A DNA stretch of 64,000 nt from NCBI GenBank assembly GCA_965243395.1, contig CBDEUS010000002.1, positions 910,491 through 974,490 of the forward strand, read 5' to 3'. Positions 59,476 through 64,000 of the stretch are shown piece after piece (the stretch's first letter is position 1; each line of letters opens with the position of its first letter). The position numbers and the translations under genes were made by a program. The DNA comes from Gammaproteobacteria bacterium (GTDB lineage Bacteria; Pseudomonadota; Gammaproteobacteria; UBA4575). The notes beneath the pieces were generated by a model that worked only from the letters and a program-made list of their open reading frames with translations, ran no database searches and had not been told where the DNA came from.

Positions 59476-59907
59476 TGGGTATTTTGTGCTGAAAGTCGAG
59501 TAATTATCTGAATTTATACATGTTATCGGAAAGTATTAGCATGTCAAACTGTAGCGCACTTTAAGCCGCTAGAGTGCTCGGTATGCGGGATAACCGTGAT
59601 TAAAAAAGCATTGTATTTTGTGGTGAATCTACAAATTTACCTTAATAAACCCGAGTGGTATATAAATTAGGATAACTGGCATTTTTTGCCAAATAGTTAA
59701 ATTTAGATGGCGATCAAATGTCTGAACAATAGTCCAAGCTTTGAAGACTAAATCCAACCGCCAATGGCCTAATAAATTTTAATTTAGCATAGCTACTTAG
59801 ATCTGCATTATTAGAACGGTTTTGCTATTCACATACAGCTTTAGTGAATGTAATAAAATATTCCACGAATCTAACCATGTCGAAAATTATTATTAATAAT
59901 TTATTGT

Positions 59908-61173
59908 TTAATTAATACAACTTCTTTTAATTCCGTATCTACCAATACAATAAAATATAAAAAACATAATAAATAAAGCAATAGATAAAATTAAATGTAT
60001 ATAAAGCGTGTTGTGACCATATAAATACATTAAAACAGCTAAAATAAATAACAGTACAAAAATTAGTATCATCGAAATTAAACGTAACACCAAGTCAAAT
60101 GAGGTATGTAAAGCTTGATAAAAACCTAAAAAAAGTGACGCACACTGACTAATGGCAATAATAATCATATATAGCATTAGACCTGAATATGAATCTGGCA
60201 GTATAAATTCTGTTATATATGCGTAGATAATAGTTAAAAATAGAATACCTAGTCCATACACTCTTAAGCTTTTTGACGCTTCTGTAATTCTATTTTGTAA
60301 TTCAAAATAATCACCATTTGCTAATAATTTTAAAACTATAGGTGTATTTTGAGCTATTATTGCAGATCGTGCAGCTTGAAAGGGTACGATAACTTTAAGT
60401 GATATTGCTAATACTGCTGCTTCTTTAAGTTCGCCCAAACTTCGCAAAAATGGAATTATTCCGCTCTGAAATAAGGACACAAGCAAAGTCAATATAACGT
60501 ATGACAAATGATCATAATGTGTACTGATTACGTCACGTGCTTTAATCTCTGTATCTTCGAATTTAAATTTTTTACTACTAGTACCCTTAAATTCTAATTT
60601 AATTAGTATGAACGATAATGTGCTAGACAGAATTAGGGACATCGTAACTAATATCAAAACTAAATTAAGATTTAATGGAAAAATTATATAGAGAATAATC
60701 GTAGATAAATGTGGTAGAACACCTCCTACAAAAATTGACCATCTCTGAATCTCAATACTTTTTAGTACTGTTTCTCCAAAACGTAGTAGAGATGTTAAGA
60801 GTGAGATCAACATTACGAATATAATTTCGTAATTCAATAAATTTGTCAGCTTTAAAAATAAACCTAAGGCAAGCATGAAAATGCATGAAATTAGTATTAT
60901 TTTTGTATAGTGCCATATCAAGAATTTTTTATGCCCTTTGCTTTGTAAACGAGGAATATTCCTCATACTAAGACCAGGACACCCTAACCCTAAAATAACA
61001 GCTATAATCGAAGCTAATGCGAGAACGGATGCATAAATTCCAAATTGACTGACACTTAATTTATTAGCAAGAATAATTATATTCAAATATGCTAGCAATA
61101 TGCCCAATATGCGGAGCGAAAAAATCTGAAAACTTAAGTCAAAATAACTTAGTACTTGTTTTGAAAAACTCAC
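59908..61173 (-). CDS. polytopic membrane protein, Wzx-like oligosaccharide flippase (MOP superfamily), putative
   Basis: The 421-aa ORF is highly hydrophobic with about 12 predicted TM segments. It sits in a sugar-biosynthesis context and has very low GC. Confidence 0.45.
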   Translation of the reverse strand: MSFSKQVLSYFDLSFQIFSLRILGILLAYLNIIILANKLSVSQFGIYASVLALASIIAVILGLGCPGLSMRNIPRLQSKGHKKFLIWHYTKIILISCIFMLALGLFLKLTNLLNYEIIFVMLISLLTSLLRFGETVLKSIEIQRWSIFVGGVLPHLSTIILYIIFPLNLNLVLILVTMSLILSSTLSFILIKLEFKGTSSKKFKFEDTEIKARDVISTHYDHLSYVILTLLVSLFQSGIIPFLRSLGELKEAAVLAISLKVIVPFQAARSAIIAQNTPIVLKLLANGDYFELQNRITEASKSLRVYGLGILFLTIIYAYITEFILPDSYSGLMLYMIIIAISQCASLFLGFYQALHTSFDLVLRLISMILIFVLLFILAVLMYLYGHNTLYIHLILSIALFIMFFIFYCIGRYGIKRSCIN

Positions 61174-62558
61174 ACAGATACTTCTATTCCATATTCAGTT
61201 GAATTTATATTATATGTAGCACAAAGAACTTCATCCAAATTTTGATTATTTTTATTGATGTAATCCTCTACCAGAGCATCAACTTCAGATTTTGTAAATC
61301 CTTCATCACTTCCATAAAAATTATCTGTAACATATTCAGAATTTTTGTTTTTTAATATACCTAGATTTTGTAAATTAAACAGCGCATTAGCCAATAACTG
61401 TTTAAGATAGAATATATTAATTGTTTTTGTAACTCTTGCTTTATCTCTAAGTAAGTTTGACCATCCACCCTCATTTCTTTCGAGTATATGGCATAGCGCA
61501 TAATAGGTTCTAGGTATGGACAATCCCAGATGAGTTGAAAACAGATCTCGCATGCCTATTTCAACTTGCTCCGTTTGCTGAATGAAAGTGTTATTTTGAA
61601 TTGCATCAAAATTATTAATAAACTTATCAGGTTTTACAAAGTTATAATACTTATAATGTTCACGCCAGTGGCCAGTATAATCATCCAATAAATCTAGGCA
61701 ATAAACTCTTTTGCCCGCTAAAACACTTTCAAAAAAGGATGTTGAGAGAAACTGTGCAATGACATCTGTACCCGCAATTATTTTTGAGAAGGGTTCGTGT
61801 TGACTAATTTGGATATTATTTAACTCCAAAAGTTTAGAGTAAGCCTCTATGGGTTCGCCAGGATGTAGTCTTACAATAATATTACAAGATGGGTGATTCT
61901 TAGCAATCGTTTCAATAACATTATAGAATTTATTAAAAGCTTTAGAATAAAATTCCCTTAAGTTATATTTTTTATCATATTTATATACTTTAAGTATTTT
62001 TTGGTACTCAGTATCTTGTATATTTGCAAGTGTAAAATCAGAGACAAAAACAATTTTATTTTTTTTATCCTCTGAAGAGCTAATTGGAGATTCTTTAGTA
62101 CGATTCAGTAAATCAAATTTCGGGCATCCAGTTATATATATGCGATTGGGATTAATTTTAGCTTTCTTAACTAACAGCTCTGCCAGCTTTTTACCCCATA
62201 CAATGTGAAAATCTACATCTCTGTTATATTCACTTAGTGCATTTAAATTTAACTTCTCGTTATAAAATCTCTTATCAAATAGTTGTTCACTATGCCACTT
62301 TACAAGCTTGGCATTACTAAAATACTTCCAGGCTAAGGTGTAGTGTGTCCTATTGCTATTATAAGATGGTGTAACAAGTATATTAGATTTTTTTTTAATT
62401 GTTTTAACAAACTCAGTTCGACCATTAAGCCAAATAGGGTCTTGATATGTGGGGTGTAAATCTATTCCACCATTCTTCTCAAATAAAGATTTCAGTATTA
62501 CTATATATGGTAATTCTCGAAGTTTAGTATCAATTTGTATAGTAATATTCTTTTTCAT
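61170..62558 (-). CDS. putative GT-B-like sugar/nonulosonic-acid transferase (capsule-synthesis KpsS/TagF-like; RLHP motif), function uncertain
   Basis: The 462-aa soluble protein is translationally coupled to the flippase gene. Its IVRLHPGEP motif is reminiscent of the HP motifs in KpsC/KpsS/TagF-type transferases. It sits next to a nonulosonic acid synthase. Confidence 0.35.
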   Translation of the reverse strand: MKKNITIQIDTKLRELPYIVILKSLFEKNGGIDLHPTYQDPIWLNGRTEFVKTIKKKSNILVTPSYNSNRTHYTLAWKYFSNAKLVKWHSEQLFDKRFYNEKLNLNALSEYNRDVDFHIVWGKKLAELLVKKAKINPNRIYITGCPKFDLLNRTKESPISSSEDKKNKIVFVSDFTLANIQDTEYQKILKVYKYDKKYNLREFYSKAFNKFYNVIETIAKNHPSCNIIVRLHPGEPIEAYSKLLELNNIQISQHEPFSKIIAGTDVIAQFLSTSFFESVLAGKRVYCLDLLDDYTGHWREHYKYYNFVKPDKFINNFDAIQNNTFIQQTEQVEIGMRDLFSTHLGLSIPRTYYALCHILERNEGGWSNLLRDKARVTKTINIFYLKQLLANALFNLQNLGILKNKNSEYVTDNFYGSDEGFTKSEVDALVEDYINKNNQNLDEVLCATYNINSTEYGIEVSV

Positions 62559-62671
62559 TAAATCTTTACAATATTTTATTCAGTCCGAATAAGCTTTTCT
62601 GATAATTTTTCAGAAGAATCTTTTTAAGTTTAGTAGACCAAAATAGTTTAGTCGCATTGACAAATAATCAA

Positions 62672-63739
62672 TTACTGATCATTTGTTATGTATGAAAGAT
62701 TCATCGGTGTTCCCATTTTTAGATCACAATTTACTTTTTTCCCTATTAGCTCATTATAATACTTAGGCTCAAGTCCATACCCAGGGCGAATACATCTCAT
62801 GTTCTCAGTGGTTAATATATTTCCTTTATTAATATTCTTTACGATGTAAATCGATCTTCTAAATTTCAAGGAATCCCTTTCAGAAGGTATTGGACCATAT
62901 TTAACTCTTCCTAATGATTTATAACAACTATAGATCTCTTTGCATAAATTCTTGAAATTAACTTCATTAGCAGAGAATTCACTATCTACACTTTTTTCCG
63001 TTGTCGATAAACTCAAGTGTTTTTCAATAACAACGGCCCCTAATGCAATACTCGCTACTGCAGCAGTTGTTCCAATTGTATGATCAGAATATCCTACCCA
63101 ACACTTATATTTATTCTTTAAGTCATTTATTGTTACCAGGTTCAAATCAATGTTTTCAGCAGGATATTTGCTGGTACATTTAAGTAATATTAAATCTTTG
63201 CATCCATTATCTCTTGCACATTCAACAGCATCATTAACTTCATTTTCTTTTGCTAGACCTGTAGAAATAAATAATGGTTTTTGTGTCTTGGCAGCTCTAC
63301 CTATTAAGGGTAAGTCTATATTTTCAAATGAAGCTATTTTATAGCAAGGCACATCCAAATTTTCTAAAAACTCAACAGCAGTCTCATCAAAAGGGCTGCT
63401 AAATGCTACTAATCCGAGTTCTTTTGCATAATCAAAAATCTCTTTATGCCATTCCCATGGAGTATATGCTTTGCTATATAAATCATATAAGTATTCTCCA
63501 TGCCATAAACTATCCTGAGAAGTAATTTTGAAATCATTTGTTTCAATTTTTAATGTCATTGTATCAGGGGTATAGGTTTGTAGTTTTATAGCTGATGCCC
63601 CTGATTCAGCAGCAGCTTCTACTATTTTCAATGCAACATCTAATGACTGATTGTGATTACCAGACATCTCAGCAACCACAAATGGTGGATGATTATCACT
63701 AATCACTTCATCTAAAATTTTAATTGGTTCAACTTTCAC
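62672..63739 (-). CDS. nonulosonic acid synthase (NeuB family; pseudaminic/legionaminic/N-acetylneuraminic acid synthase)
   Basis: The 355-aa ORF has a TIM-barrel with EMSGNHNQSLDVALKIVEAAAESGASAIKLQTY and GYSDHTIGTTAAVASIALGAVVIEKH. A C-terminal SAF/antifreeze-like domain is present. Confidence 0.85.
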   Translation of the reverse strand: MKVEPIKILDEVISDNHPPFVVAEMSGNHNQSLDVALKIVEAAAESGASAIKLQTYTPDTMTLKIETNDFKITSQDSLWHGEYLYDLYSKAYTPWEWHKEIFDYAKELGLVAFSSPFDETAVEFLENLDVPCYKIASFENIDLPLIGRAAKTQKPLFISTGLAKENEVNDAVECARDNGCKDLILLKCTSKYPAENIDLNLVTINDLKNKYKCWVGYSDHTIGTTAAVASIALGAVVIEKHLSLSTTEKSVDSEFSANEVNFKNLCKEIYSCYKSLGRVKYGPIPSERDSLKFRRSIYIVKNINKGNILTTENMRCIRPGYGLEPKYYNELIGKKVNCDLKMGTPMNLSYITNDQ

Positions 63740-63869
63740 TGTACTTTCTTTAATAAAGATAATATAAATTTAATGAAATAATTAATTGTTTTATATGCGT
63801 TAAAATATTCTTAAAAATCAAATCAGCTTATTTCAAAAAATTAACTATTACTACACATATTAATATTAT

Positions 63870-64000
63870 TTACTTTTCTTTATAAATATTTATGTAATAT
63901 TTTTTTCCACGACAATAAAAATATGCTGGATAACGTTCATTATCAACAACACGCAATAAATCAAATTGTTCCGATATACTTTTATCAGGATTCAATTTAC
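63870..64000 (-). CDS. C-terminal fragment of an upstream ORF running off the window end (product unknown; possibly further glycan-locus gene)
   Basis: The minus-strand frame reads ...LNPDKSISEQFDLLRVVDNERYPAYFYCRGKKYYINIYKEK and stops at 63870-63872. Only about 43 codons fall inside the window. Confidence 0.3.
   Translation of the reverse strand, partial: KLNPDKSISEQFDLLRVVDNERYPAYFYCRGKKYYINIYKEK

Follow-up and report, generated by a model that had tools for sequence, protein, structure and literature searches.

Why does a block of sugar genes with lowered guanine-plus-cytosine (GC) content lie directly upstream of pilB, the gene for the type IVa pilus assembly ATPase, in a gammaproteobacterium? 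The stretch of DNA analysed here, hereafter the window, is 64 kb long, and the block occupies its last 4.5 kb (59476-64000), where genes for a putative flippase, a putative transferase and a nonulosonic acid synthase adjoin pilB. We think it reasonably likely that these 4.5 kb are the pilB-proximal end of a ~13-kb pilin O-glycosylation island lying between pilA and pilB, and that the island's glycan contains pseudaminic acid (Pse), probably in its 7-N-formyl form. The sugar cassette most likely decorates the pilus protein itself.

The island between pilA and pilB

Related genomes allow the block to be read at greater length. In L081, L082 (extended as L090) and L084, which carry the same island, the gene order is a gene for a protein of about 650 amino acids (aa), then GT2, DUF354, pseB, pseC, neuB2, pseF, pseG(H), pseI, a 462-aa gene, a wzx-like gene and GT1. 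The island is followed by pilB-pilC-pilD-coaE-zapD, all on one strand. A fourth relative, L173, has a different island. The pse genes for which the earlier note on this DNA, made from the window alone, had advised a search beyond the window's end are found in the relatives at that position (pseB, pseC, pseF and pseG).

The left end of the island can be read in L090, and comprises sucCD on the opposite strand, pilS, pilR, pilA, a hairpin terminator and the 650-aa gene. This pilA encodes a 148-aa type IVa pilin (Pfam Pilin and N_methyl) and stands ~10 kb upstream of pseI, at the head of the same run of co-directional genes. The earlier note had taken the glycan block to stand in place of a pilin gene, where a pilA divergent from pilB might be expected. 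No pilin gene was found in the 64-kb window by a six-frame scan for the N-terminal motif or by tblastn, which gave no significant match, and no TfpO-like gene was found anywhere in it; but the relatives keep pilA at the far end of the same island, and in the present lineage it is co-directional with pilB. For the window genome itself, a 627-aa protein (P0039) that is 78% identical to the L090 650-aa protein is recorded on the genome's contig, and a 3-kb contig with an identical P0039 (L092) holds the C-terminus of a pilin (ending in VDWDCRPATGGTAIPNKYLPADCRQ and a stop codon), a hairpin, P0039 and the GT2 gene. In both L090 and L092 the element between pilA and its downstream neighbour is a GC-rich hairpin with a T-run. 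The pilA-to-pilB architecture is established for the group of related genomes and, judged from these matches, very likely holds in the window genome as well.

Within the window, the island end and its pilus flank contain the following features.

55608-56384, minus strand: pilD (Pfam Peptidase_A24 and A24_N_bact)
56526-57752, minus strand: pilC (Pfam T2SSF)
57757-59475, minus strand: pilB, type IVa pilus assembly ATPase and conserved island flank (Pfam T2SSE, 510.8 bits, and MshEN)
59485-59767, minus strand: spacer 5' of pilB, the right-hand edge of the variable cassette (alignment to relatives)
59794-59832 (aligned stretch to 59877), minus strand: remnant of the 5' end of a GT1/GT4 gene, a frameshifted stub (alignment to L082)
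59908-61173, minus strand: Wzx-like multi-pass membrane protein, 421 aa, putative lipid-linked glycan flippase (Pfam Polysacc_synt, hydropathy)
61170-62558, minus strand: 462-aa soluble GT-B-fold protein, putative transferase dependent on cytidine monophosphate (CMP)-pseudaminic acid
62672-63739, minus strand: pseI, pseudaminic acid synthase, 355 aa (NeuB and SAF, TIGR03586)
63870-64000, minus strand: last 43 codons (3' end) of a gene resembling those of sugar N-formyltransferases, truncated at the edge of the window (C-terminal alignment to L084)

The four island genes, the last one cut, are co-directional with pilB, pilC and pilD, and the 462-aa and wzx-like genes overlap by 4 nucleotides (nt). 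GC content is 0.300 at 59476-64000 against 0.392 at 1-59475, and the fall starts at the pilB start codon. All eight 1-kb windows in the island (0.295-0.312) lie under the minimum of the remaining window, which in 1-kb steps has a mean of 0.392, a standard deviation of 0.023 and a minimum of 0.342. The earlier note had described a low-GC, co-directional glycan block adjoining pilB, with a sharp shift in composition and a further open reading frame (ORF) running off the window end. Sliding windows and the annotated genes bear this description out, and the stop codon of the cut frame lies at 63870.

It is not necessary to regard the block as fused to the pilBCD operon, as the note had put it, because pilB is preceded by a 432-nt gap whose spacer is conserved in relatives and holds a promoter-like site. 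The spacer (59485-59767) is 80% identical to L082 and L081 and is conserved only among the Pse-island genomes. Its sigma-70-like site (59547-59520, TTGACA-16-TAACAT, 10/12 positions) lies ~45 nt before pilB and is a candidate promoter only, as such sites are not enriched over shuffled sequence. Homology to L173 begins at 59485, 10 nt before the pilB ATG, and for this reason we place the end of the variable cassette there.

The remainder of the gap records a deletion. Window positions 59795-59877 align with L082 12904-12987, which covers the end of a small ORF (present between the wzx-like gene and GT1 in L081 and L082) and the first 39 nt of GT1 (start 12949), while 59492-59767 align with L082 14319-14599, between the GT1 stop (14028) and pilB. 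The GT1 remnant reads GTG AAT AGC AAA ACC, then has a 1-nt deletion and a stop. In all, ~1.33 kb present in L081 and L082, including GT1, is deleted in the window genome. GT1 is intact in the relatives, where it encodes a Glycos_transf_1 protein (359 aa in L081 and L082, 359-363 aa overall). Its loss may have left the window genome with a glycan that is one sugar shorter, or may mark an island in decay. A degraded pilA or TfpO-like gene was rejected as an explanation of the gap, since it holds the GT1 remnant.

Pseudaminic acid genes and a candidate transferase

The synthase points to the identity of the sugar. PseI scores 476.2 bits against the equivalog model TIGR03586 (NCBIfam, cut-off 340.25) and 268.5 bits, below the cut-off of 399.65, against the sialic-acid synthase model NeuB_NnaB. 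It has a Pfam NeuB domain (271.7 bits) and a C-terminal SAF domain (36.9 bits), and is 82% identical to its L082 orthologue. Because the synthase is specifically PseI, the nonulosonate would be pseudaminic acid rather than sialic or legionaminic acid. The earlier note was therefore right to call a NeuB/PseI-type synthase, and of the three sugars it had allowed, only pseudaminic acid stands. Within the window the Pse pathway consists of pseI and the formyltransferase tail. In the relatives, PseB (533 bits, cut-off 408), PseC (572, cut-off 423.5) and PseG (325, cut-off 154) all pass their models, PseF (187 bits) falls just under its cut-off of 205.7, and PseH is either a weak fused domain (31.9 bits) or is represented by a formyltransferase instead.

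The translation of the ORF cut by the window end terminates in LNPDKSISEQFDLLRVVDNERYPAYFYCRGKKYYINIYKEK and a stop codon, and aligns with the C-terminus of the product of L084 8071-8706. That gene lies between pseG and pseI, and its product matches Pfam Formyl_trans_N, with weak NCBIfam matches to ArnA-type and dTDP-amino-sugar formyltransferases. The N-acylation step varies between the syntenic islands. In L081 and L082 the pseG gene extends into a PseH-like acetyltransferase domain (L090 18010-19560); in L084 pseG is free, and the formyltransferase has a gene of its own, as it does in the window. From this gene content, the islands of L084 and the window predict N-formyl rather than N-acetyl pseudaminic acid. 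The position of the formyltransferase, which corresponds to that of the PseH domain in relatives, makes the 7-N-formyl derivative the probable product in the window genome.

A second NeuB-family gene without SAF (neuB2) lies between pseC and pseF in all three relatives (L090 16251-17312, L081 5490-6551, L084 5198-6259). Its scores of 252 bits for the PseI model and 220 bits for the NeuB model are below the respective cut-offs, and together with the adjoining DUF354 gene (GT-B/epimerase-like) it might provide a further nonulosonic or similar acid.

Flagellin glycosylation is the commonest role of Pse in Gram-negative bacteria. The classical cases are Campylobacter, Helicobacter and Aeromonas (works cited in PMC12645811), and it is conceivable that the present pse genes also serve flagellin and are mere neighbours of the pilus genes. 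We find this hard to credit. Neither the island nor its flanks contain a Maf/FlmG-type glycosyltransferase or a flagellar gene in any relative, and flagellin glycosylation is cytoplasmic and needs no flippase, which would make the Wzx-like gene superfluous. The product of that gene is best described as Wzx-like, a putative rather than a proven flippase: the 421-aa protein matches Polysacc_synt at 26.3 bits (E 5.9e-6), slightly under the cut-off of 28.2, has ~10-12 hydrophobic segments by hydropathy, and is 70% identical to its L082 orthologue.

The 462-aa protein matches no Pfam family. Its nearest models are TIGR04396 'surface carbohydrate biosynthesis protein' (108.8 bits, below the cut-off of 125) and NF046086 'BFO_1060 family glycosyltransferase' (87.9 bits, E 7e-25, cut-off 200), and a profile search of its alignment against solved structures gave only non-significant KpsC matches (E 0.2). 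An R-x-H-P-x-E motif is invariant in the family, and the D/E-D/E-G motif is not conserved. Only nine homologues occur in 5.8 billion clusters, of which three are placed on contigs, namely those of L081, L082 and L084 (81, 78 and 69% identity). The sole named homologue, from Ketobacter alkanivorans (CP022684.1, L085 10001-11392), is 40% identical. We lean towards a role for this protein as the Pse transferase, because its gene stands directly after pseI in four genomes, but only slightly in view of the genomic context of the Ketobacter homologue, described below.

A comparison with Tannerella forsythia is instructive here. Its Pse and Leg (legionaminic acid) transferases have been shown genetically to add the terminal nonulosonate, and those behind NF046086 carry a TagB/GT-B domain, an HP motif and a D/E-D/E-G motif (PMC5420450). 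Tanf_01245/BFO_1060 and the 462-aa protein are both soluble, ~445-462 aa long and encoded beside CMP-nonulosonate genes, and they appear to share the GT-B/TagB-like domain and HP motif. The 462-aa protein differs in its low score (88 bits against a cut-off of 200), in its unconserved D/E-D/E-G, and in belonging to another phylum with another acceptor glycan.

Cassette exchange and the pilin-linked glycosyltransferase

The acceptor of the sugar is best approached through the way in which the island varies. The window PilB is 96.7% identical to that of L173 and 91% identical to that of L082/L090, and the window genome and L173 share the flanks sucCD, pilSR and pilB. The island follows the opposite pattern. 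Against L173, identity is only 38.7% for P0039 and 60% for GT2, and the other island genes show no relationship, L173 having a GT-C-GT2-Wzx-sulfotransferase-GT4-AsnB-like-GT4 island (the AsnB-like gene being an amidotransferase); against L090, P0039 is 78% and GT2 85% identical, and the pse island is the same. Between L090/L082 and L173, identity runs from 88% in PilR through 60% in PilA, 39% in the GT-C protein and 59% in GT2 to an unrelated island, and returns to 92% in PilB. We take the exchange to have occurred as one block because the closest PilB relative has both a different island and a divergent GT-C gene. By these comparisons, pilin, GT-C and sugar genes appear to swap as one hypervariable cassette at a fixed site.

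This pattern fits homologous recombination within the conserved flanks that replaces the island between them, and pilus-specific phages or grazers are the likely selective pressure. All island variants have lowered GC (0.33-0.37 against 0.38-0.40), which is usual for glycan loci. The earlier note's proposal of horizontal acquisition can be retained as cassette exchange among related genomes at a fixed site. A recent insertion specific to this genome was rejected, as L081, L082 and L084 hold the same island at the same site. tRNA scans found no tRNA gene in the window, L082, L090 or L173, and there is no integrase among the called genes of the relatives' islands. Neither pse genes nor the 462-aa gene occur within 10 kb in any of 80 pilB loci from other species, and a full-text literature search turned up no account of pse genes located between pilA and pilB.

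Two further occupants of the site were seen. A third island type, in L087 (CP046178.1, 1-9670; PilB at least 90% identical), holds an NTP-transferase, a 4,6-dehydratase, two DegT aminotransferases, a methyltransferase and an FAD oxidoreductase; this sugar-nucleotide cluster is transcribed away from pilB, and no pilA lies within 10 kb. In the next-closest lineage (L001 2168-4368, PilB 79%), a single 491-aa Wzy_C gene, O-antigen-ligase/TfpO-like, lies between pilA and pilB. As L001 carries a Wzy_C gene there, two unrelated classes of pilin glycosylation enzyme would occupy the same slot in neighbouring lineages.

The gene directly after pilA encodes the 650-aa protein, a member of a family (627-650 aa) that no Pfam or NCBIfam model matches. 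Its fold is that of GT-C enzymes, closest to protein O-mannosyltransferases, with Pmt4/Pmt2, AglB and ArnT most similar: the membrane domain resembles those of solved GT-C enzymes, and the first loop carries an acidic motif. Across 37 aligned homologues, with identity as low as 29%, F-x-F-D-D near the N-terminus and GHxLEST..PLEL..EHRNYLP are invariant. The C-terminal 200 residues are TPR, matching the TPR domain of O-GlcNAc transferase at E 6e-8. A profile search of 1.84 billion cluster representatives returned 16,503 at E <= 1e-30; the best 150 matches are all full-length at ~650 aa, and weaker ones may rest on the TPR domain alone. The neighbouring GT2 protein has two C-terminal hydrophobic helices, with AglJ, PpgS, Dol-P-hexose transferase and ArnC as its best NCBIfam matches, and would be a membrane-anchored synthase of the polyprenyl-phosphate-sugar type.

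Linkage of this family to pilin genes is strong. We collected 80 metagenomic loci with family members (L093-L172), 66 of which have at least 700 nt upstream of the GT-C gene; in 62 of these (94%) a type IV pilin gene on the same strand terminates no more than 800 nt upstream, frequently preceded by pilS-pilR. A GT2 homologue starts within 1.5 kb downstream of the GT-C gene in 34 of 60 loci. The adjacency of pilA and GT-C recurs in pilB-centred loci of Exilibacterium tricleocarpae, a Halopseudomonas metagenome-assembled genome (MAG) and one other MAG. What recurs is a module of pilin, GT-C/TPR protein and lipid-phosphate-sugar synthase, frequently with a flippase and more transferases. In its minimal form (L103) it reads pilSR-pilA-GT-C-GT2-pilB. 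An independent association of pse genes with a pilin cassette is found in L137 (2950-17298), a high-GC metagenomic locus where two pilin genes and two GT-C genes are accompanied by pseB, C, F, G/H and I and another GT2, encoded on the other strand.

Some variation within the module can also be noted. Tandem GT-C copies occur in 28 of the 80 metagenomic loci, many of which also have two tandem pilin genes upstream. In the Halopseudomonas MAG (L034 4600-9655), the gene after pilA, GT-C and GT2 encodes not a Wzx but a 575-aa ABC transporter (ABC_membrane and ABC_tran), which may be an alternative flippase of the same module. The cyanobacterial pilin glycosyltransferase Ogt was set aside as an unrelated, cytoplasmic GT41 enzyme.

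Gene content, gene order, folds and linkage statistics can be read directly from these loci, and from them we infer a pathway. The Pse enzymes would make CMP-Pse in the cytoplasm, and GT2 would attach a first sugar to undecaprenyl phosphate. This lipid-linked sugar would be extended by DUF354, by the 462-aa protein, which would add Pse from CMP-Pse, and, in the relatives, by GT1; the Wzx-like protein would flip the product. At the periplasmic face, the GT-C/TPR enzyme would then transfer the glycan to Ser/Thr residues of the pilin. The L090 pilin carries a TLAATTATTATL stretch that, to our impression, resembles an O-glycosylation region.

Could the sugar go elsewhere? The Pse block might be an O-antigen, lipo-oligosaccharide or capsule cluster lodged in a pilA-pilB recombination hot spot, with Pse destined for lipid A-core or polysaccharide and the GT-C/GT2 pair working independently with a single sugar. 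Pse clusters with Wzx are indeed typical of O-antigen and capsule (K) loci, L103 shows that GT-C and GT2 can stand without further sugar genes, L087 has its divergent sugar-nucleotide cluster with no pilA nearby, and the distant Ketobacter homologue of the 462-aa protein sits in a capsule locus. Yet of the Wzx/Wzy gene set of such clusters, the complete islands of L090/L082 and L173 contain only the Wzx-like gene; we found in them no Wzy, Wzz, Wza/Wzc, WaaL, ABC exporter or initiating phosphoglycosyltransferase of the Bac_transf/WecA type, though these could sit elsewhere in the genome. The lack of Wzy, Wzz, WaaL and an initiating transferase would favour pilin glycosylation. The genes from GT-C through wzx are moreover all co-directional and tightly spaced, the GT-C allele changes along with the sugar content, and the lack of pse genes at the 80 pilB loci of other species argues against a general O-antigen site. 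We judge a surface-polysaccharide cluster unlikely, and of the options raised by the earlier note, context favours pilin glycosylation over the boundary of an O-antigen or capsule cluster.

A compromise between the two is that one lipid-linked Pse unit serves both lipopolysaccharide or capsule and the pilin, or is attached to many periplasmic proteins. TfpO-/PglL-type systems transfer O-antigen or capsule units to pilin (PMC9829042), and L001 has its TfpO-like Wzy_C gene in the exact slot after pilA. In the present lineage, however, the enzyme is a GT-C protein rather than a Wzy_C oligosaccharyltransferase, the island has no ligase or polymerase, and a family that is pilin-adjacent in nearly all loci is expected to have a dedicated substrate. 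We consider such a shared glycan quite improbable.

Pilin glycosylation, which we prefer, has its own difficulties. All the evidence is genomic, the source being an uncultured MAG whose island past base 64000 is deduced from relatives and a contig match rather than read. The deletion of GT1 means that the pathway in this genome could be altered or decaying, and the co-variation of GT-C and sugar genes could reflect recombinational hitch-hiking rather than functional matching. The 462-aa protein aligns end to end with TIGR04396 and NF046086 while standing outside both curated families, and its fold resembles 2-epimerases equally. Its Ketobacter homologue lies directly after wzi-wza-wzc in a sulfotransferase-rich capsule locus, and pse genes are absent within 10 kb. 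We also know of no bacterial precedent for a Pse-oligosaccharide donor used by a PMT/ArnT-type GT-C enzyme. Such enzymes normally transfer single sugars from polyprenyl-monophosphate donors; oligosaccharides borne by a monophosphate carrier are known in Euryarchaeota (AglJ/AglR/AglB). TfpW, a pilin glycosyltransferase of Pseudomonas aeruginosa, has been proposed to polymerise as well as transfer (bioRxiv 10.1101/2020.04.19.049825).

Pilin glycosylation is known as a defence against pilus phages and as a driver of pilin diversity, and so far few enzymes are known for it, from pathogens. The locus indicates that environmental Gammaproteobacteria widely use a GT-C/TPR protein with a polyprenyl-phosphate GT2 right after pilA, and that whole sugar pathways, here that of pseudaminic acid, are slotted into the pilA-pilB interval. 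If this is true, it would add a family of protein O-glycosyltransferases with possible use in nonulosonic acid glyco-engineering, and would make the pilA-pilB island type a genomic marker of how surfaces differ between strains of uncultured bacteria. The GT-C/GT2 core module also occurs in cultured organisms; the named matches include Halopseudomonas spp., Exilibacterium tricleocarpae, Thiocapsa bogorovii, Zhongshania borealis and Colwellia.

Relation to known glycosylation systems

The pairing of a GT2 with C-terminal membrane helices and a GT-C enzyme is shared with DPM1/Ppm1-PMT, ArnC-ArnT and AglJ-AglR-AglB. A further parallel with these systems is a putative flippase of its own within the gene cluster, Wzx-like in the present island and of ABC type in Halopseudomonas. 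None of these systems targets type IV pilin, and the present proteins score below the curated cut-offs, so that the likeness is an analogy of logic and fold rather than membership. A bolder proposal would make the GT-C/TPR and GT2 pair a very large unannotated class of pilin O-glycosylation systems, distinct from TfpO/PglL/PglS/TfpM and TfpW, that here builds a Pse-capped oligosaccharide on undecaprenyl monophosphate for en bloc transfer to pilin, following the archaeal AglJ-AglR-AglB logic. We offer this tentatively and regard it as doubtful.

The Pse capsule and O-antigen loci, such as the Acinetobacter KL loci with psaA-F, resemble the island in an apparently complete pseB, C, F, G, (H), I set with Wzx and glycosyltransferases, in their low GC, and in strain-to-strain replacement at a fixed site. 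The island differs from them in having no Wzy, Wza/Wzb/Wzc or initiating transferase, and in being flanked by pilA/GT-C and pilB rather than by the housekeeping genes that border polysaccharide loci.

The closest counterpart is TfpW of P. aeruginosa group IV (AAM52060.1), a 646-aa protein encoded downstream of pilA, with a DDX motif in loop 1, ArnT as its best template and a C-terminal TPR (bioRxiv 10.1101/2020.04.19.049825). The TfpW systems (pilA-tfpW(-tfpX) in P. aeruginosa group IV; also P. indica and Kingella denitrificans) and the GT-C/TPR family both have the accessory gene directly 3' of pilA, and the proteins share a length of ~646-650 aa, a multi-pass N-terminal domain, the first-loop DDX, GT-C character and the C-terminal TPR. 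As in the present islands, sugar-donor genes cluster with pilA in some species. The TfpW motif YX6PFX7P of periplasmic loop 4 is nevertheless absent from P0035 and P0039, even with relaxed spacing. The donor routes also differ, with DPPR synthase/DprE1/DprE2 and D-arabinofuranose in TfpW systems, and GT2, the CMP-Pse pathway, Wzx and soluble transferases here. Unlike at TfpW loci, pilA here points the same way as pilB, and the island takes up the whole stretch between them. Among the 240 homologues listed (120 per search) the name TfpW does not appear, and the Halopseudomonas query gave 'hypothetical', 'TPR protein' and, from JGI, 'protein O-mannosyl-transferase'. We therefore describe the GT-C/TPR family, which was compared with TfpW by description and motifs only, as apparently TfpW-like in logic and do not file it as TfpW.

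In the group I locus pilA-tfpO (pilO) of P. aeruginosa 1244, the pilin gene, a terminator and the glycosylation gene follow one another as they do here. Castric et al. (2001) are said to have found a pseudaminic acid derivative in the pilin glycan of this strain, including the 7-N-formyl form. TfpO of strain 1244 is a Wzy_C-type oligosaccharyltransferase that uses O-antigen units from a distant locus, whereas here the enzyme is of GT-C type and the Pse genes lie inside the pilin island. Pilin glycosylation protects P. aeruginosa against pilus phages (bioRxiv 10.1101/150227). The hallmark of a pilin-accessory cassette is a Rho-independent terminator behind pilA and, beyond it, one or more accessory genes that are specific to the strain (PMC11841053). 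L090 and L092 both have the hairpin, and accessory content differs between close relatives. Judged by these likenesses, the locus is best described as a variant of the known pilin-accessory glycosylation cassettes of the TfpW/TfpO type, one in which the pse pathway lies inside the pilA-pilB interval.

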